A DNA stretch of 64,000 nucleotides from positions 32,302,001 through 32,366,000 of the forward strand of contig CM069159.1 in NCBI GenBank assembly GCA_035221665.1, in the 5' to 3' direction. Below are positions 5,731-61,340 of this stretch, one piece after another; the stretch's first letter is position 1; every line of letters begins with the position of its first letter. Under the pieces are notes generated by a model. That model made no database searches, had not been told where the DNA came from, and was given only the letters and a program-made list of their open reading frames with translations. This DNA is from Okamejei kenojei. Taxonomy: Eukaryota. Position numbers and translations under genes: made by a program.

Positions 5731-7195
5731 AGAAGTGGCAAAGCCTCATCTCCAACTATTCCAAATGAGACTGTTTAAATGTTACTAACTTTCAGTGACA
5801 TTTAAACTACTAAAATTTAAGTAAACAATTTATTTTAAATTAGAAAAGAAAGAATGACACCAACAATTAAGCTTAACATTATTGTTTCAAAATTAAGGAA
5901 TATAACCCATCCCTATGTCTGCTAGTCAACAATATCCCAATTCCTGTTGAAATCAATTGGGTCGCTCTGTTAACTGGTCCGGAAGTTGAAAGACAATTTC
6001 TGTCTTCAAAACATTACCCATCCTTTTTCGCCAGGGTTGCTGCTAGACCCGCTGAGTTACTTCAGCACTTCATGTCTATCCCCAGCACAGATGTTGGGGA
6101 ATCTCAGCAAGATGGCAGTTTGCCATTGGATCTGTGGCAGTGCAAGCCCACAGCTTTAGCATTCTGAATCTAAAAATGTCAGAACTTCTGTCTTTGACAA
6201 TGCACGTGCCGTGGAGTCAAACCTATAACATTTAAGTGGCTACGAGCCTGCATTTGGAACTTTAGACATTCGCCGAAGTCCTGATACATTATATTTGTTA
6301 ATTATTTTGAGATGGATTTATTCCATTTTGAATACCAATTTGATTTGCGCAGCACATTTTCAATGCCAACAGTTGTGTTCAGTATTCTATTTCAGAGTTT
6401 TCGATGCAGCCGAAAGTGACATGTATAACATGCTGAATGTTGAATTAATTGTAAATTGTGGGTGCGTAAGTCACAACATTGGTCTCAGAAAAATTTACTT
6501 GGATTCTCATTCTTAAGTATTCTGCCTTTGAGGAATATGAAAACACAAAGAGTCTAATCTCAGCATTTCTTAGGTAAGTAAGTAAGTTAGGGCAGGACTA
6601 CATGAGTGTATTTTTGAATAGTATGTTCCTTTCATTTTGCTGGGGATGCATTACTGCAGACACAGAGTAATCTGTATTACGTGTTAGCAGGTAAAGCAGC
6701 TGGGGAAAAGTCTGGGCTTGATAGAGATGAAAGTTTGCATCCTGCAAATCTGAAAGTGGTTTAGCATCCTAGAAAGTTAGAACCATCGATTTTCTGGAAA
6801 CGTTAGTGAGTCTAACGTAAAGAACAGATTTAATTTTTTTTCATGGAGTTATACAGCATGGAAAGAGAAGTCTGCCCTACTTGTTCATGTCGACCAAGTT
6901 GTCTTTCTGAGCGCCTCCCATTGGCCTGCATTTAGCCAGTATTCCTCTAAACCTTTCCTACCATGCACCTGTGAAAATATGTTTTAGTCTTTGTAATTGT
7001 ACCAGCCTCTACCAATGCTTCTGGCAGCCCTTTTTTTTTAATGTACCTACGATCCTCTGTGTGGATATTGTTCCCCTCAGGTCCCCTTTAAAACTTTTCC
7101 CTCTCATTTTAAAACTCTGCCCTTTAAATTTAGATGTTCCTACCCTAAGAAAAAGTGTGACGATCCATCTTATCTGTGCTCTTATCTCATGATTT

Positions 7196-8638
7196 GATTT
7201 GATTTGATTTTATTGCTTGTCATTCGAACCTCAGAGAGGCTCAAACGAAACTCCGTTTCTACAAGCCATACAAACAGACAAACAGAACAATTCATAGAAA
7301 AACATGCAAACAATTAAATTCACACAAACATCCATCACAGTGGATCCCTCCTCACTGTGATGGAAGGCAAAGTTCTTCTCTCTCCCCCGCACCATCTCTC
7401 TCCCGATGTCGAAGCCCCAGGCGGGCGGTGTTAAGTCCCATGTCCACTGAGGCCGCTCCAGGCCCAAAGTCACAAAGTTGGAGCCCCCGGCGGGCGCTGG
7501 AATGTCCCGCAGCCATTAAAGCCGCGCCGGGCAATGTTCGGCCCCGCTCCGGGTCGTTCCAACCCCGCGACACGGGCTGGAGAAGTTGTGTTGTGGAGCT
7601 CCGGAGAGCGGTCTCCCACCCGGACCCGCGAGCTCCCGACACCCCAACTGTCCACCGTCAGCAACCTGCAGCTGGAGCCGGAGCTGGAGCCCCGGAGTCG
7701 GGCCGCAGCTGGAGCCGGAGCCGGAGCTGGAGCCGGAGCTGGAGCTGGAGCCGGAGCCCCGCAGCTGGAGCCGCAGCTGGAGCCGGAGCCGGAGCTGGAG
7801 CTCCGGAGTTGGGCCGGAGCTGGAGCCCTGGAGTGGAGCCGGAGCTGGAGCCCCGGAGTCTGGCCGGAGCCGGAGTCGAGCCGGAGCTGGAGCCCTGGAG
7901 TCGGGCCGGAGCTGGAGCCGGAGTCGGGCCGGAGCTGGAGCCCCGGAGTCGGGCCGGAGCCAGAGCCGGAGCTGGAGCCCCGGAGTCGGGCCGGAGTCGG
8001 GCTGGAGCCCCGGAGTCGGGCCGGAGCCAGAGCCGGAGCTGGAGCCCGGAGTCGGGCCGGAGCCAGAGCCGGAGCTGGAGCCCGGAGTCGGGCCGGAGCC
8101 AGAGCCGGAGCCCCGGAGCCGGAGCTGGAGCCCGGAGTCGGGCCGGAGCCGGAGCTGGAGCCCCGGAGCCGGAGCTGGAGCCCCGGAGTCGGGCCGGAGC
8201 CGGAGCCGGAGCCCCGGAGTCGGGCCGGAGCTGGAGCCGGAGCTGGAGCCCCGGAGTCGGGCAGCAGCCGGAACTGGAGCCCGGAGTCGGGCCGCAGCGG
8301 CCACCCACCACCGCTCCCCACGCTCCGAGGCCGGCCAGCCCCACGACGGTAAGCTCTCAGCTACGCGACTGGAGCCCCCAGGTCGTCCCGGTCGGAGGCC
8401 GCTCCACGGCACCAGGCCCCAACGACAACGGAGACCTGACAGGGAAAAAGTCAGGTCTCCCGTGCAGGGAAGAGATTAAAAATGGTTCCCCCTTCCCCCA
8501 CCCCCCACCCCCCACCCCCCACATATACACAGTTAGAAAACAATACAAAAAAAACACAAACAACTACATTTAACTAGACAAAAAACAAAAAAAAACAGAC
8601 AGGCTGTAGTGGCCGCTGCAACGTCAGTCGCGCTCGCC
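7196..8638 (-). mobile_element. Non-autonomous composite retroposon, copy 1 (leader + GC-rich VNTR + Rex1-like 3' hairpin + (AAATC)n tail)
   Basis: catgattt duplicated at 7188-7195 and 8639-8646; minus-strand AATAAA at 7209-7214 then AAATC repeats; ends homologous to 28004-29086. Confidence 0.75.
7670..8298. repeat. GC-rich minisatellite of GGAGCC/GGAGCT/GGAGTC hexamers with higher-order unit GGAGCTGGAGCCCCGGAGTCGGGCC
   Basis: Directly visible; explains the six overlapping low-complexity ORFs. Confidence 0.95.
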
Positions 8639-9486
8639 CATGATTTTATAGATCTCTATAACGTCACCACTCAATCATCTTTACTCTAATAAAAACAATT
8701 GCAGTCTGCCTATGCAGTCTATCCTTATAAGACAAGTCCTTCAGTACCAGCAACATCCTTGTTAATCTTTTCTGCATCTACTTTAGCTAATTACATCCTT
8801 CCCATTGTATGGCGACCACCCTTGAACTCCTTCCACCATTTTTGTATCAGATTATCTTCCTGGCTAAAGCCAACAATATGGATGGGAAGGCAGCCAGCAG
8901 TGCAGAGGTGATTCTTACGTGGATAGGGGAGGGTAATTCTGGGCAGTTAAAAGGTGGGGATAGAGGAATGGGACAGAGTTTGCGAAGGGCAGAGTTGTAC
9001 ATGAGATATCAATGGAAGATGTTAGATATGTCTTTGGGATTGGACAGTAGAGGAATTACAGTGTCACATTGGATATTTGGGTGGCAGACAAGTGGGGGAG
9101 TCAGGATTTGGATATGAAATTGATATTTAAGTGGGTTGAAAGTCCTGGCTTTCTTGAACAAATTGTCTGCAGTGCTTTCATTGTCTTTGTCCGCAATTAA
9201 GGATTTAACCACCAGAAGATTGTTGAAGCTGTGGAGCGACCATCCACAGTAGTCAATACTTGTTGAAAAGGAGTCGTGTTATAGCATCATATTAGCATAC
9301 CACAATTTTGTGTTTAAAGCTGGGATGAGAATATTGTTACCAGCAATATTTTATAATTTATTTTGTGCTTTAGAGAATGTTATGCATGATTGTAAATTGT
9401 AAAATCTCTCTAAATTTAATTCATAGTGCTGCAAAGTTAATGATAAAATTGCAATTCATTCCACAGATGGCATATTATCTAAATCA

Positions 9487-9637
9487 CAAAAAGCTGGAGT
9501 AATTCAGTGGAACAGCAGCATCTCTGGAGAAACGTTACCCATTCCTTCTCTCCAGAGATGCTGCCTATCCCTCTGAGTTACTCCAGCTTTTTGTGTCTAT
9601 CTTCGGTTTTAAGCAGCATCTGCAGTTCGTTCATACA
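9487..9637. mobile_element. Fold-back Penelope pLTR-derived element
   Basis: Inverted arms; 16-bp direct repeat catattatctaaatca at 9471-9486 and 9638-9653. Confidence 0.8.
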
Positions 9638-10768
9638 CATATTATCTAAATCAGTAGCTTTATGCAGCATTTACTGGACAAATGAGATAACGCTTTCTTT
9701 CAAAATGGTAGTTTCTTCAGTAACCGTGCAGTTTGAAAATTAATCGTCTATTTTTAATGAGAAATAATTTATGCAATGGAAATGTGTAAAATTTATAACT
9801 CAGGATCTCATTTGACCCTTTGCTTGTGTACCAGTCGACAAACATTTTCATCGTCTAATTGCAGCATGAATATTCAGTTTGCTGCCCTGCGGGTTATAGT
9901 CAAGTATCTATTTGCATGTGTTGAGGGTTTCTCCCTCAGTGCTTCAATCCCGAGCTGCTGCTTGGTGAAAATATGTTCTTCATCATCCTTCTAATCCTCC
10001 TGTTAACTGTTTTAAATCTTTGTCTCAGGATTTCAGCCTCTCCCTACATGGAAATCGCTATGTTCTGTCTCTATATTGTTATACATGAGAATGAAGTCTC
10101 CCTCAATACCCTGTGTTCCAAAACATCAAACCCACCAAATATATATATATTTGAATACAGATATGTACCCAATACATGTAACATAGCCTGAATTGCATTG
10201 TACATTTTTTTAGGTGAGCTTCTCTGGTTTTATGTTCTATGCCTTGGCTAATAAAGGAGAGCATTCCGATGGTGTTTGCTATTTTTAAGAAACTGTGGGT
10301 ATGAACACAATTTCCTTTGTTCCTTCACATCATTAAGCTACAACAAAGCTAGGAAATGCACAATAAATCCTCCCAACGTGTATTTCCTACCTTTGTTGCA
10401 CCACTCCAAATGCATTACCTCACACCTCTCTAGAGTAACCTCCTTTCGCCTCTTCTCTGTCCAGCTGATCAAACTCTATCTTCCTGCAGATTAAATTCAA
10501 AACAAGATTTTCTGTCATCCCTCTAGTACGTTTATCGTGTCCTTCGTGTTCAAATCTAAATTATTGATACATAGCACGAAAAGCAAAGGACTGATTACTG
10601 AGCCCAATGGGAGAACTGCATTACACTTACAATCACCTGTTTTAAACTGTAAACGTCTCAACTCCAACTGCAGCAGAAGCAGGCAAACGATCGCCGAACT
10701 CTGGGGCTCACAGCCGTTGCGGTCCGGATCCGCTCCCACTTCTACCCCCAGAGCGGGGCCAAGAAAAT

Positions 10769-10956
10769 TGAAGATAGACACAAAATGCAGGAGTAACTCA
10801 GCGGGACCGGCAGCATCTCTGGAATGGAAGACGTTTCGGGTCAAGATCCTTCTTTTCAAACTGAAGAAGAGTCTCGACACAAAACATCCCCCATTGCTTC
10901 TCTCCAGAGACAATGCCGGTCCCGCTGAGTTACTCCAGCTTTGTGTCCGTCTTCAA
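10769..10956. mobile_element. Fold-back Penelope pLTR element with two opposed degenerate hammerhead motifs
   Basis: tgaagatagacacaaa...tttgtgtccgtcttca arms; gacgtttcgggtc and ctgaagaagagtctcgac in the centre. Confidence 0.75.
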
Positions 10957-11869: not shown

Positions 11870-13105
11870 TGTGTAGTAAGGAACTGTAGATGCTGGTTTT
11901 AAACCAAAGATAGGCACAAAAAGCTGGAGTAACTCAGCGGGTCAGCAGCATCCCTGGAGAAAAGGAATAGTTGACGTTTCAGGTTGAGACCCTTCTTCAG
12001 ACTGAGAGTTAGGAAAAAGGGAAGTGAGAGAGAGAGATAGACGGTGATATAGAGAGATATAGAACAACTACTGTGCCTTCCATAATGTTTGGGACAGATC
12101 CATCATTTATTTATTTGCCTCTGTACCTCACAATTTGAGATTTGTAATAGAAAATAAATCACATGTGGTTAAAGTGCACATTGTCAGATTTTAATAAAGG
12201 CCATTTTTATACATTTTGGTTTCACCGTGTAGAAATTGCAGCAGTGTTTATACATCGTTCCTCCCATTTCAGGGAATCATAATGTTTGGGACAATGTAAT
12301 GTAAATGAAAGTAGTCATGTTTAGTATTTTGTTGCATATCCTTTGCATGCAAAGACTGCTTGAAGTCTGCGATTCATGGACATCACCAGTTGCTGGATGT
12401 CTTCTCTGGTGATGCTCTGCCAGGCCTGTATTGCAGCCATCTTTAGCTTATGCTTCTTTTGGGGGATAGTGCCCTTCAATTTTCTCTTCAGCATATAAAA
12501 GGCATGCGCAATTGAGTTCAGATCGGGTGATTGACTTGTCCACTCAGGAATTGACCATTTTTTAGCTTTGAAAAGCTCCTTTGTTGCTTTAGCAGTATGT
12601 TTGGGATCATTCTTGCTGTAGAATGAACCGCCGGCCAATGGGTTTTGAGGCATTTGTTTGAACCTGAGCAGATAGGATGTTTCTATACACTTCAGAATTA
12701 ATTATGCTACTGCCATCAGCAGTTGTATCATCAATTAAGATAAGCGAGCCAGTATCTTCAACAGCCACACATGCCCAGGCCACAACACCCCTACCACCGT
12801 GTTTCACAGATGAGGTGGTATGCTTTGGATCTTGGGCAGTTCCTTCTCTCCTCCAACACAGCTGTCATTTCTACAAGGTGAAACCAAAATGTATAAAAAT
12901 GGCTTTTAATAAAATCTGACAATGTGCACTTTAACCACATGTGATTTTTTTTTCTATTACAAATCTCAAATTGTTGGGTACAGAGGCAAATAAATAAATG
13001 ATGGGTCTTTGTCCCAAACATTATGGAGGACATTGTAAATGAAAGAAATGCAAAAAAAGTTACGATGATCAAGGAAATGGTCTATTGTTGTCTGTGGGCT
13101 AGTTA
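11870..13105 (-). mobile_element. Penelope pLTR fragment with hammerhead core (11969-12003), interrupted by Tc1
   Basis: Minus strand CTGAAGA-AGGGTCTCAACCT-GAAACGTC; purine-rich arm appears to resume after 13037. Confidence 0.7.
12071..13035 (-). mobile_element. Internally deleted Tc1/mariner transposon, IR/DR type
   Basis: Long TIRs (~175 bp) with DR cataatgtttgggaca, TA on both flanks; transposase remnants KHGGRGVVAW, NDPKHTA, WTSQSPDLNSI. Confidence 0.92.
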
Positions 13106-28003: not shown

Positions 28004-29086
28004 GGTGAGCCGCGCTGGCTGGCAGCTGCGGCTCACCTGCAGTCTGCCTGTTTTTTCTTTTTTTTGTTGTCTTCTAGTGTTTGTTTTAGTAGAATTTGTT
28101 TTAGGTTGTGGGGGTGGGGGGGGGGGGGGTGGGAGAAACAGGGTTTTAGTCTCTCCCTTCGGGGGGATGCATGTCCACCGTCTCCGTCTGTGCTGAGGCC
28201 TAATGGCGGAGCTGTGGAGGCGTTCGGCGGCGGCCCGGCTTAGAGCTGCGGTGCTCCAGCGGCTGTTCCTCCAACTTGCGGTGTTGCTCACTCTGGCCGT
28301 GGAGGACCGAGAGGTCGGATACGGAATGGGAGGGGGAGTTGAAGTGCTGAGCCACCGGGAGGTCGGGTTGGTTTTTGCGGACCAAGCGGAGGTGTTCGGC
28401 GAAACGATCGCCAAGCCTCCGCTTGGTCTCACCGATATAGATCATCTGGAGCAGTGGATGCAGTTGATGAGGTTGGAGGAGGTGCAGGTGAACCTCTGTC
28501 AGACCTGGAAGGACTGCTTGGGTCCCTGAAAGGAGTGGAGGGGGTAGGTGAAGGGACAAGTGTTGCATTTCTTGCGGTTGCAAGGGAAAGTGCCCGGGGA
28601 AGGGGTAGAGCGGGAGGGGAGGGAAGAATTGACAAGGGAGTTGCGGAGGGAGCGGTCTTTGCGGAAGGCAGACGGGGGGGAGATGGGAAGATGTGGCGGG
28701 TGGATGGGTCACGTTGGAGGTGGCGAAACTGGCGGAGGACTATGTGTTGTATTTGCCGGCTGGTGGGGTGAAAGGTGAGGACCAGATGCGGTGCTCCAGA
28801 GGTGGCGGCGGCCCAGTTTAGAGCTGCGGTGCTCCAGCGGCGGCGGAGGCCTGGATCGCCTCAGTGCAGAGGGAGAACTAGGAGGGATGAAGACCAAGAC
28901 TTAAGACTTTTGCCTTCCACCATAGTGAGGAGGTGCCTGGTGAACTAATTGTGGTGGATGTTAAATATGTGTTTATTGTGTGTTTTGTTTTTTTATTTTT
29001 TATTATATGTTATGACTGCATGGTAACAATTTCGTTCAGACCGAAAGGTCTGAATGACAATAAAGGAATCTAATCTAATCTAATCT
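28004..29086 (+). mobile_element. Non-autonomous composite retroposon, copy 2
   Basis: Same leader, T-rich and G-run order as copy 1; GC-rich repeats; ttcagacc-gaaa-ggtctgaa hairpin; AATAAA at 29059; (AATCT)4 tail. Confidence 0.72.
28263..28785 (-). mobile_element. Penelope GIY-YIG endonuclease fragment nested in retroposon copy 2
   Basis: IYIGETKRRLGDRFAEHLR...PVAQHFNSPSH; tgcggtgctccag at 28247-28259 and 28787-28799. Confidence 0.85.
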
Positions 29087-29975
29087 AAAAAAACCCAAAA
29101 TGTATGAGAAAGAGATAAGGATCGAAGAGGTGGGAAATATGAAGCCAGAGAAAGGAATGTAGGTGGAAAGGAACAGGGGGAAAGGGAAATGAAGAATGCA
29201 TGTGCATCCTGCTGGAGCACAAGGAAAAAAAAGGAGGGGGGGGGGGGAAGGGAGGGCTTGAAACATAGAAGAAACATAGAAAATAGGTACAAGAGGAGGC
29301 CATTTGCCCCTTCGAGCCGGCACCGCCATTCATTGTGATCATGGCTGATCGCCCCAATCAATAACCCATAGAAACATAGATGGTTACCTAGAATTGAAAA
29401 AGTCAGTGTTCACACCGTTGGTTGTAAGTTACTCAATGAAATATGAGGTGCTATTCCTCCAGTTTGCAAGTAGCCTCACTCTGGCAATGAAGGAAGACCA
29501 GGACAGAAAGACCAGTATGGGGATGGGAAGGGAAAATGGTTAGCAACCGGGAGATCCAGCAAACCTTCGTGGATCATAATCTTCTTGATTATTATTATTT
29601 CCTATAATTATAATTCACATTAGACTATTATTGCCATGGTATTTTCCAGGCTAGTCACTGGCATGAGTCATATTTTATAATTTTGTTTTCATTTCAAGAG
29701 CCTTTTCCTTTCAATCGTAAATTACCAGTGGTAAAAGTATATTTTTTAATTTGAACAGACTTTCGAAAGTGTCTCCAAAATATTAGTTTTAAATTCTCTT
29801 GTTTTAAAAAAAGATAGATTTGGGGAATCATTAAGATTGAGATTTTTTTGTTCCAAGATAAAATATAGTTTGGAATTTAAATACCAGTTTAGATCTTATT
29901 GTGATGAATGAGATCAAACTGAGGGATTGGGTTATTTCTGCTACTTTCACCATTTATGTGTACGTTCTTTCTCAG

Positions 29976-41074: not shown

Positions 41075-41733
41075 CAATCTTCATTGATGATACAACTGCT
41101 GATGGTAGTAGCTTAATGAATTCCTACCTGCTCAAGTTTAAACAAATGCTAAAAACTCATTGGCCGGCAGTTCATTCTACAGCAAGACAATGATCCCAAA
41201 CATACTGCTAAAGCAACAGAGGTGTTTTTCAAGGCTAATAAATGGCCAATTCCTGAGTGGCCAAGTCTGAAAATGATCTGAATCCAATCGAGCATGCCTT
41301 TTATATGCTGAAGAGAAAACTGAAGGGGACTAGCCCCCAAAACAAGCATAAGCTAAAGATGGCTGCAATACAGGCCTGGCAGAGCATCACCAGAGAAGAC
41401 ACCCAGCAACTGGTGATGTCCATGAATCGCAGACTTCAAGCAGTCATTGCATGCAAAGGATGTGCAACAAAATACTAAACATGACTACTTTCATTTACAT
41501 GACATTGCTATGTCCCAAACATTATGGTGCCCTGAAATAGGGGGACTATGTATAAACACTGCTGTAATTTCTACATGGTGAAACCAAAATGTATTAAAAT
41601 GGCCTTTATTAAAATCTGACAATGTGCACTTTAACCACATGTGATTTTTTTCTATTACAAATCTCAAATTATGGAGTACAGATGCAAATTAATAAATGAT
41701 AGGTCTTTGTCCCAAACATTATGGAGGGGACTG
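41075..41733 (+). mobile_element. Tc1 3' half, same family as 12071-13035, opposite orientation
   Basis: QQDNDPKHTA, DLNPIEHAF...IACKGCATKY, right IR/DR ending ggactg then TA. Confidence 0.92.
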
Positions 41734-42109
41734 TATGTTATTCAGAATTTGTCTTTGTACATGACAGCACTAATTGATCTTCCTTGTCTTTGTACACAGA
41801 GAGCCAGGGCACTTGAATTTGTCTTGAACACTGGCAATGCTGTAGACAGATCTGTGGATGCAGACATCAATGCCCAGTTTGCTGGGGGAAAGCATAGGAG
41901 AGAGTATTAGGAGGGGGGTAGGAGAGCGATTTATTTTACCAGTTGTCCACCTCTTTCCCCGTCCCGTCAATGATGAGCAATGGATAGTGCTTCCAAAAAG
42001 AGTTATAAAGGGAAATGGGGGATAGCATTCAATTATTATTTCTAGTGTAAGTTGTTAAATTCTTCTCTCTGATATATTTTGTTACCCAGCTCAGAGAGTT
42101 TAGTGACAT

Positions 42110-42880: not shown

Positions 42881-43849
42881 CTGTGGGGCTGTTTTGAAAC
42901 ACTTGATAATCGCATAATATGATACAAATCATAACCCTTGCAGCAATAGATGCTATATTTATATACTTACCTTATTTAGTTCACTTTTTTACCTCCACCT
43001 CACACACTGACTTCTCTATCCTTGGCTTTTAGGTTGATCTAATAATATTTAATATAAGTGTGAGGCAAAGGACCACATCTTTTGATGAATGTGTTACAGC
43101 TTACCTGAATCAACGCTGTCAAACAGCAGCTTCTAATGATTCCGCTACTTCCATGTAATACATCTCTGGATTCATTTTTGTGTTTTTACTTATTCTCTAA
43201 CCTCCCCTGTCGGTCTTTCACAAGCACCGCTTTTGTTATTTGTACTTTTCACTCTGTCAGACTTTCGCTTTCATTTCTTAATTTCTCTCCATCTTGCTTC
43301 GTCGCAAATATTTTTGAGTTTACGTTGAAAGTTCATTAATCTAATGTATTAATTGTTTCCCTTTTAATAGTTGTTGACTGATCCGCTGAATTTTCAACAC
43401 TTAGTTTTTAATTCGGTTTTCCAATATCTTGATATTTTAATGTATATAGTTTTGAGAATTTTTATCAGAGAATAATCAGTCTTTCCGTTAATCTTATAAT
43501 CTAATATTGGTTATTAATATTCCAATACAACAAAAATTTGCAGTCATTTAGTACTGTTGACATTATTAAAAGGTCAAGGGGTATTATCAAATTTGTCAGC
43601 TGCAGATATTGCTTAAAATGACATGAACATTGGTCAAAATAGTAGGTTTCTAAAGGAGGAGATACGTGCAAGGTGGAATGATTCAAAGAGAAAACTTCCA
43701 GACTTTAAGGGCCTTGGCAGTGAAAAGTTTGGCTGCCGGACATGGAGCGAGCGAAGTGACAAATCCGCAAGATACTGGAATTGGATACTTGGAATGATCT
43801 TGGTTGTTTGACTACTACAGAAATTGTGCACAAAGATAATAATCATTAA

Positions 43850-43990
43850 AGAAGATAGGCACAAAATGCTGGAGTAACTCAGCGGGTCAGGCAGCAACTC
43901 TGGAGAAGAGGAATAGGTGACGTTTCGGGTTGAGACCCTTCTTCAGACAGATCTTTGGTGTAAACCAACATCTGCAGTTCCTTCTTATAC
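43850..43990 (-). mobile_element. Penelope pLTR element with intact hammerhead core (43916-43949)
   Basis: Minus strand CTGAAGA-AGGGTCTCAACCC-GAAACGTC-ACC; ataataatcattaa duplicated at 43836-43849 and 43991-44004. Confidence 0.82.
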
Positions 43991-60339: not shown

Positions 60340-61340
60340 CCTTTGTTGCCTGATAACAACTGGGAAGAAGCTGTCCCTGAATCTAGAGGTATGCATTTGT
60401 AACTCTTGCCTGATTGGAGTGGGGAGTAGCACGAGTGGGGGGGGGGGGGGGGGGGGGGGGAGGAGGGTGAGATTGGTCCCTGTTTATGCTTGTGGCCTTG
60501 CCAAGGCAGCGTGAGGTGTAGATGGAGTCCATGGTTTGCACAATGGTCTGGGCTACATCCGCAACGCTCTGCAATTTCTTGCAGTCTTGGATGCAGCTGT
60601 TCCCAAGCCATAAGCACATCTGTAGAAGTTAGTGAGGGTTGTTAGGAACATGTCGAGCATCCTAAACCTTTTAAGAAAGTTAGTGTTCTTTCTTTGCCAA
60701 TGCTTTGATATGGCTGGTCCAGCGCAAATTGCTGGTGATACATGCTCATAAGAACTTGAAGCTTTCGACCATCTCTACTTTGGTGCCATCAATGTATACT
60801 GAGGTGTATGAAAGAACTGCAGATGCTGGTTTAAATCGAAGGTAGACACAAAATGCTGGAGTAACTCAGCGGGGCAGGCAGCATCTCTGGAGAGAAGGAA
60901 TGGACAACGTTTCGGGTCGAGACCCTTCTTCAGGCTGATGTCAGGGGAGTGGGCGGGACAAAGATAGAATCTAGTTAGAGACAGTAAAACTGGTGGGAGA
61001 ACTGAGAAGGGGAGGGGATGGAGAGAGAGGGAAAGCAAGGGCTATTTGAAGTTCGACTAGATACTGGGGTATGTGTCTTGCTTCTCTTTTTGAAGTCTAT
61101 CGCAATCTCCTTTGTCGTGCTGACATTGAGGGAGGTGTTGTTGCTTTGGCACCAAGTTCCAATGTTCTCAACCTCCATCCTGTACTCCGTCTCGCCTTTC
61201 TTTGATAACCAGCCCCCGACAGTGGTGTTGTCTGCGAATTTGTAGATTGAGTTGGATTGGTAATTGGTTGCACAATTATGAGTACTTGGGCACTATAGAA
61301 GGGGGCGGAGACCACATCCTCGTGGGGCCCCTGTGTTGAA
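60340..61340 (-). mobile_element. Rex1/Babar RT remnant in the 3'-UTR intron, interrupted by a Penelope pLTR (~60805-61060)
   Basis: WCQSNNTSLNVSTTKEIAIDF, KFADNTTV and IYTSRCLGKA motifs; hammerhead on minus strand at 60902-60937. Confidence 0.8.
60902..60937 (-). ncRNA. Minimal type I hammerhead ribozyme motif (Penelope pLTR)
   Basis: CUGAAGA-A-GGGUC-UC-GACCC-GAAA-CGUU: intact core and perfect stem II, but stem I only about 2 bp. Confidence 0.6.

Follow-up and report, generated by a model that had tools for sequence, protein, structure and literature searches.

The structure at positions 7,196 to 8,638 of the window, as we call the whole 64,000-nt stretch of Okamejei kenojei DNA analyzed here, raises the question of what kind of mobile element it represents and which enzymes could have copied it. 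The first-pass annotation, made from the letters alone, had described it as an SVA-like composite retroposon with a GC-rich leader, a VNTR and a LINE-type 3' end, and every module that it listed was found where it had been placed. The features on which the following sections draw are these:

7196..8638, minus strand: whole element, a family A copy of 1443 nt, delimited by the empty site in organism C and by the family boundaries
8639..8646, minus strand: 8-nt target-site duplication (catgattt), 5' copy, which the empty site has only once
8611..8638, minus strand: head hairpin, likely homologue of the Rex1 5' terminus and presumptive Pol II start region
8486..8596, minus strand: T-rich tract (about 8521-8596) followed by a G-run (8486-8520), kept in every subfamily aligned
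8430..8460, minus strand: hairpin 2 (11 bp; ggagacctgac/gtcaggtctcc), fold z -5.0, covarying across subfamilies
7670..8298, minus strand: GC-rich VNTR with 6-nt and ~13-nt sub-units, TRF score 459, the longest among 26 scored family A copies
7331..7364, minus strand: hairpin 3 (12 bp), fold z -3.4, the best-conserved motif of the superfamily
7209..7250, minus strand: Rex1-type terminal stem-loop (hairpin at about 7217-7250, fold z -4.2) and AATAAA (7209-7214), predicted recognition signal
7191..7210, minus strand: (AAATC)4 tail, whose last unit is common to tail and duplication
7188..7195, minus strand: 3' copy of the duplication (catgattt), which opens with the five letters of a tail unit
28004..29090, plus strand: family B copy, split at 28262-28785 by a GIY-YIG fragment in antisense orientation

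An empty site and the copies of family A

Examination of sequencing runs from related organisms reveals the locus in its state before insertion. A single 2027-nt contig from run X8 (organism C) spans the locus without the element: its letters 221-850 correspond to window positions 9300-8639 and its letters 843-1764 to positions 7195-6301. The 8-nt overlap between the two matches is the duplication; hence the element comprises 7196-8638, organism C retains the empty site with one copy of catgattt, and this octamer is a true target duplication. The flanks in organism C differ from the window at 62 positions in about 1,550 letters. The empty site starts with AAATC, which is one tail unit and fits priming aided by pairing. 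Empty-site proof comes neither from run X6, whose flank contig ends at 8639 and which is not listed on the left flank, nor from run X14, whose flank contig likewise ends at the junction but is matched on the left flank only, while the contigs of runs X1 and X4 (organism A; X1 is possibly the assembly's own sample) extend 28 nt into the element, below the 31-nt bridging threshold. Element-like contigs abound in the sequencing runs from organisms B, C and E, so that these, too, contain the family or close relatives of it. The two flanks of the element match successive stretches of the C-terminus of one LINE protein (aa 52-114 and 128-165, in this order), belonging to what we take to be a CR1 element. 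Empty site and flanking protein matches thus agree with the original description of a 1.44-kb minus-strand insertion into a LINE fragment at a duplicated catgattt, and the element is mobile and recently inserted.

Searches of the genome (2.76 Gb in 1141 contigs) with the head and the tail of the element returned 2,489 and 1,893 candidates, respectively, figures that are not copy counts; 40 of the head candidates were scored (93-100% identical) and 30 fetched. The starts of family A agree at GTGGGCGAGCG, and 27 of the 29 other head-selected copies reach the same tail, the remaining two ending inside the 3' part, so that the two ends co-occur around a variable VNTR as had been anticipated. Among 30 tail-selected copies, which lie in unrelated flanks, 11 are full-length (window copy included) and 19 are 5'-truncated, with breaks in the leader (3), the VNTR (6) or the 3' part (10). 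None of the 19 has the end of a sense Rex1 ORF upstream, the sole upstream Rex1 protein match being antisense. The element is therefore not the 3' UTR of a LINE, a match to the UTR of a single known LINE being one of the outcomes that the first-pass annotation had named as contradicting its reading.

The non-repeat parts of 26 head-selected copies lie a median of 1.2% off the majority sequence, a value biased low because these copies were picked by their likeness to the window copy. Duplications of at least 5 nt were scored in 8 of 26 family A copies, as against 11.7% of mismatched control pairs, by a script that missed the proven 8-mer of the window copy; strict-start scoring finds them in 2 of 26. 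Target duplications in family A are short and often absent, and of the earlier expectation in this regard the 8-nt duplication of the window copy stands proven, whereas most copies have short ones or none. Marks of target-primed insertion are present in the form of 5' truncation (19/30), a microsatellite tail and the duplication at the window copy. Three of 30 family A copies (L018, L019 and L023, near 1500) carry partial head duplications just upstream of their start, and three others (L028, L076 and L082) abut or sit inside other superfamily members.

Structured modules without coding capacity

Hairpins 2 and 3 and the terminal hairpin fold much better than shuffled sequences, and the head hairpin folds no better than these (z +0.67). 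Hairpin 2 has changes on both sides at 6 of 12 pairs across 13 sequences, its covariation score being reached by 0 of 500 shuffles, a comparison in which related sequences can beat the shuffles even without structure. Hairpin 3 has 92% of cells paired across 19 sequences and both-side changes at 2 of 12 pairs. Inverted-repeat repair in DNA offers an alternative way of keeping the pairs of either hairpin; because kinship or such repair could also have preserved them, we treat a role of hairpins 2 and 3 in the RNA as putative. The AATAAA is likewise only a putative polyadenylation signal, as it belongs to the tail motif of Rex1 and the copies have no poly(A).

Neither a tRNA (ARAGORN) nor an Rfam match was detected in the element, Rfam returned nothing elsewhere in the window, and the head sequence contains no CT-hexamer/Alu-like 5' domain. 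A B box is absent from the first 400 nt, and the first 100 nt contain T runs of 9, 6 and 8 that, judging from the letters, would stop Pol III; these observations uphold the view that the element has no tRNA head and no Pol III head of any kind. A ribozyme at the head was considered and rejected, as Rfam had no match and folding gives a simple hairpin there. The sense strand of the element has no ATG ORF of at least 60 aa, and its three sense frames have no tblastn match to 12 Rex1 bodies, consistent with the claimed lack of coding capacity. Two antisense low-complexity ORFs cross the VNTR, the longer one without a Pfam match.

The window holds several other repeats. An abundant short repeat whose inverted arms are long (105 nt and 90% in the copy at 100-382) is found at 100-382, 9485-9638, 10770-10956, 43836-43951 and 60806-60938, and two repeat copies at 12096-13037 and 41189-41735, which lie 28.7 kb apart and are 91-95% alike, have internal inverted parts. 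An ARAGORN call of tRNA-Val at 29377-29467 is without Rfam support and likely spurious.

The 3' end and the Rex1-type LINEs

Full-length LINEs that we assign to the Rex1/Babar clade, a name taken from their domain layout, measure ~3.1-3.5 kb and have one frame, beginning at the ATG of AAGATGGCG, that encodes an endonuclease, a reverse transcriptase and the PF09004 domain. A PF09004 search gave 50,685 candidates; scoring covered the best 150 of 17,868 and 50,685 candidates, and the Rex1 families seen carry their ATG within a few letters of the start and have 3' UTRs some 130-360 nt long. They fit the description of Rex1 in the accessible part of a review, which mentions an AP endonuclease, a reverse transcriptase, a conserved 3' UTR and a variable oligonucleotide tail (PMC6274825).

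The Rex1-type tails have TTTCGTT-stem-AATGACAATAAA in common with families A and B, and the same stem is recovered in most folds. Against 11 Rex1-type tails the A tail attains a summed score of 246 (null 156+/-15) and the B tail 333.5 (null 184+/-21), each unmatched in 2000 shuffles (0/2000), and five CR1-type tails score 11.5-18, near the null. A Rex1-tail profile yields only 6 weak matches in the A/B loci (E 1.8 or worse). The earlier attribution of the tail to a Rex1-type LINE is thus borne out by the terminal stems, but the intact LINE envisaged as having the last ~60 nt in common with the element has no near-identical counterpart to A or B among 95 Rex1-type tails (22 clusters). As far as such likeness goes, the 3' end is matched to Rex1-type LINEs at the level of the clade. 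The tail of one older copy (L169) aligns closely over ~90 nt with that of one Rex1 family (L047), and the tail of another older copy aligns more loosely with a different Rex1 family, which suggests tail exchange. One Rex1-type family (copies L244, L260, L266, L267, L268 and L270) has a variable tandem repeat of its own in the 5' region, and the starts of its copies vary by about 230 nt.

The head and the Rex1 5' end

The Rex1 heads have a common bulged hairpin (91% of cells paired), likeness to which is weak in family A and clear in the VNTR-less subfamilies C and D. In end-anchored comparisons with Rex1 heads, family A reaches p=0.0015 and family B p=0.015 relative to shuffles, and the scores of the C and D heads are attained by 0 of 5000. 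A motif chosen post hoc from the alignments, TGGCGGCGC-N4-12-GCAGCGGCTC with one mismatch allowed per half, is seen in 11 of 14 Rex1, 20 of 20 C and 15 of 20 D heads; its two matches in 600 kb of random DNA are both superfamily heads. Subfamilies A-D have GTG at the position of the Rex1 ATG. The A/B heads were found neither by a Rex1-head profile (E up to 20, 768 kb) nor by a Rex1-head covariance model (E up to 10), and the profile recovered one of 40 C/D heads, at E 1.2. One of the eight Rex1 families, Rex_a, scores at or below the null against every head. On balance we hold it to be probable that the head of the element is homologous to the Rex1 5' end. The best covariance-model match, window 6108-6165 (E 0.055), was dropped as a head for want of a T-tract behind it.

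The older subfamilies represented by L176 (~5000), L142 (~4080), L097 (~4010) and L139 (~2900) start with CCACTAGGGGCGC or CACCAGGTGGCAC, family B with TCCGGAAGTG, and Rex1 with AAGATGGCG. We take CCACTAGGGGCGC and CACCAGGTGGCAC to be CTCF-like, TCCGGAAGTG to be ETS-like and AAGATGGCG to be YY1-like, and across the subfamilies and Rex1 the initial letters seem to change from one promoter-type motif to another.

A superfamily with a structured middle and a probably locally grown VNTR

Broad profiles give 13 head-region and 15 tail-region matches in 60 random 10-kb stretches of 12 large contigs; the tail density of 15 per 600 kb corresponds to about 70,000 superfamily copies in the genome (Poisson range about 39,000-114,000), and the same 600 kb contain no family A copy. 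Subfamilies that are only ~55% alike retain the T-tract, the G-run and the hairpins but differ in their Rex1-type tails. In 12 full-length Rex1 bodies from 7 families nothing matches the ~600-nt structured middle, so that no LINE seen could have given rise to the element by internal deletion alone. This middle is likely to belong to the passenger lineage itself, which over time appears to have acquired the tails of different Rex1 families. In L142 and L169 the head and the tail are far apart, and the intervening stretches, considered as possible ORFs, proved to be nested insertions instead; in L097 (3360-4010) an older superfamily copy joins a Rex1 copy at hairpin 3, as a nested insertion or a chimera.

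The VNTR is present in all 26 scorable family A copies (30 were head-selected, and four lacking the full set of anchors were dropped), with array lengths of 106-640 nt (median 275), the window copy having the longest. Its first and last units recur across most copies, and its length does not correlate with divergence (Spearman -0.09, p 0.65, n 26). In family B (1,617 candidates) arrays of 152-1006 nt occur in 26 of 30 loci, that is, in all 26 scorable copies, the loci left out being two without a head anchor, one without a tail anchor and the interrupted window copy. TRF finds no array in subfamily C (17 of 20 copies measured, median 838 nt) or in D (19 of 20, median 778 nt), and older relatives are without a clean array. 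In a tree of the non-repeat parts, A pairs with the VNTR-less D (FastTree support 0.985), and B/E fall on the side of the VNTR-less C. Furthermore, C and D are collinear with their sisters to either side of the array and contain its unit once, and the shortest A array aligns to the single unit in D. As each VNTR family has a VNTR-less sister in the tree, the array likely grew in place twice, so that the VNTR of the A lineage and that of the B/E lineage were likely each amplified locally from one GC-rich unit. Two expansions at one position are the simplest reading of the tree, a single origin with later losses being less economical.

The family B copy of the window corresponds to a diverged relative that had been listed at 28004-29086 with the same modules and a different repeat unit. 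The relative is indeed present, but about 520 nt of its middle is the antisense GIY-YIG fragment, only 3 repeat units being left, and its unit, far from being different, occupies the same position as the family A unit and resembles it. The fragment reaches a Pfam E of 0.0008 on a longer copy, below the curated cut-off, and is presumably Penelope-like.

Comparison with known retroposons

In the accessible text of Kojima 2018 (PMC5786205), ORF-less passengers that retain both ends of a LINE are listed from RTE, Ingi, Vingi and R2 sources only, with RIME, NARTc, Bov-A, RTESINE1/2 and derivatives of Vingi-1_EE and R2 as examples. Like these bipartite elements, as far as they are described there, the present one has no ORF and no small-RNA head, likely keeps both LINE ends, and would be transcribed by Pol II and mobilized in trans. 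Unlike them, it has a Rex1-type tail and a likely Rex1-type head rather than the ends of RTE, Ingi, Vingi or R2, and whereas they consist mostly of LINE sequence, it has only ~30 nt and ~45 nt of this around its ~600-nt middle (PMC5786205). The element would work like the bipartite ORF-less LINE derivatives, but by comparison with the 12 Rex1 bodies of 7 families it does not consist of LINE ends only.

SVA and LAVA have an L1-type 3' end with poly(A), as opposed to the (AAATC)n tails and Rex1-type stem found here. The element resembles SVA, LAVA, PVA and FVA, as characterized in the accessible portion of Lupan 2015 (PMC4432496), in being non-autonomous and in its variable central GC-rich VNTR with recurring array-end units. 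It differs from them in having no CT hexamer, Alu-like or SINE-R part, a microsatellite tail instead of poly(A), a presumed Rex1-type partner rather than L1, an array probably derived from an internal unit, and short or absent duplications; the parts of SVA, according to the same portion, derive from different elements (PMC4432496). EhSINE1 of Entamoeba histolytica likewise lacks A/B boxes and combines variable internal repeats with a short 3' end shared with a LINE, but has 1-4 repeats of 26-27 nt and a LINE of another clade, and the available text reports no LINE likeness beyond the 3' end (Huntley 2010, PMC2996970). The chondrichthyan SINEs HE1, SacSINE1 and SINE2-1_CM, and SINE2-5_NV, also borrow a LINE via a shared 3' stem-loop, but are tRNA-headed, unlike the element with neither tRNA head nor B box; SINE2-5_NV of a sea anemone is paired with Rex1, and a Rex1 element can accordingly have a passenger (PMC3747384, in its accessible part). 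The element is neither a member of the SVA group nor a SINE, and its likeness to ape SVA is likely one of layout and not of origin.

Origin of the element

We propose that the element is probably a recent protein-free retroposon with a Rex1-type stem-loop and microsatellite tail and a likely Rex1 5' start, which was likely copied in trans by the protein of a Rex1-type LINE. Pol II would start at the Rex1-like head; the Rex1 endonuclease/reverse transcriptase would bind the 3' stem of the transcript in trans and prime at a nicked target that pairs with the tail unit, such as AAATC at the empty site; reverse transcription would often halt early, leaving short duplications or none; and the one GC-rich unit, amplified locally into the VNTR, would travel with the element and be resized in each copy. 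A wider reading, which we put forward as tentative and somewhat doubtful, is that this element belongs to an old, chondrichthyan-wide Pol II passenger lineage, neither described nor curated, with a structured core of its own, which swaps Rex1 tails, carries GTG in place of ATG, has repeatedly grown VNTRs from the same unit and would form a vertebrate parallel to SVA.

If the element were instead a simple internal deletion, it would have lost no more than the ORF of a Rex1 family, extinct or unsampled, whose UTRs would make up its middle. Both of its ends are Rex1-like, known bipartite elements arise in this manner (PMC5786205, in the text accessible), and only the best 150 of the 17,868 and 50,685 candidates were scored; such an origin is nonetheless unlikely, considering that the Rex1 families seen have a near-terminal ATG and the 3' UTR lengths given above, that superfamily profiles match the 12 Rex1 bodies weakly, at the ends and a C-rich run, and that subfamilies so far diverged share the middle yet differ in their Rex1-type tails. 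We hold it to be quite unlikely that the 3' end alone came from Rex1, as in EhSINE1 with the ~70 nt of 3' end that it shares with its LINE, and that the head, a GC-rich promoter piece of unrelated origin, acquired its similar hairpin by convergence, since C, D and Rex1 heads agree in about 20 letters, which form two blocks at one and the same terminal position (0/5000 shuffles). What speaks for this origin is that the heads escape profile and covariance-model searches that are unanchored, that the heads lack the Rex1 AAGATG start, and that older subfamilies have other 5' starts.

The fusion of leader, VNTR and LINE tail from separate elements by splicing or template switching, in the manner of SVA, would explain the common layout, as well as the occurrence of the VNTR in all scorable full A/B copies with recurring end units as in SVA/LAVA (PMC4432496, accessible portion). 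We consider it very improbable, and it appears to be largely refuted by the sister subfamilies: these are collinear around the array and hold a single unit, and no donor turned up for the modules other than the Rex1 ends. The term composite in its SVA sense, which the first-pass annotation had used, is accordingly set aside, the head being likely a Rex1 5' end and the sisters still carrying the single VNTR unit.

Implications

No description of the family was found in the openly accessible papers searched; the main text of bioRxiv 10.1101/2025.06.08.657570, so far as available, contains neither 'Rex' nor 'SINE', and its repeat library may name the family. The element concerns transposon biology, and no host function is proposed for it. 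If the proposed origin is true, a group built on Rex1 and numbering tens of thousands of copies in a single genome would lengthen the 2018 list of four LINE clades, and VNTR composites, which have been described as hominoid-specific, would have a non-primate case of VNTR-bearing retroposons beside them. The insertions are young enough for presence/absence markers between close species. Finally, the A/D and B/C pairs, with and without the array, offer a direct test of the effect of a VNTR on mobilization and silencing.
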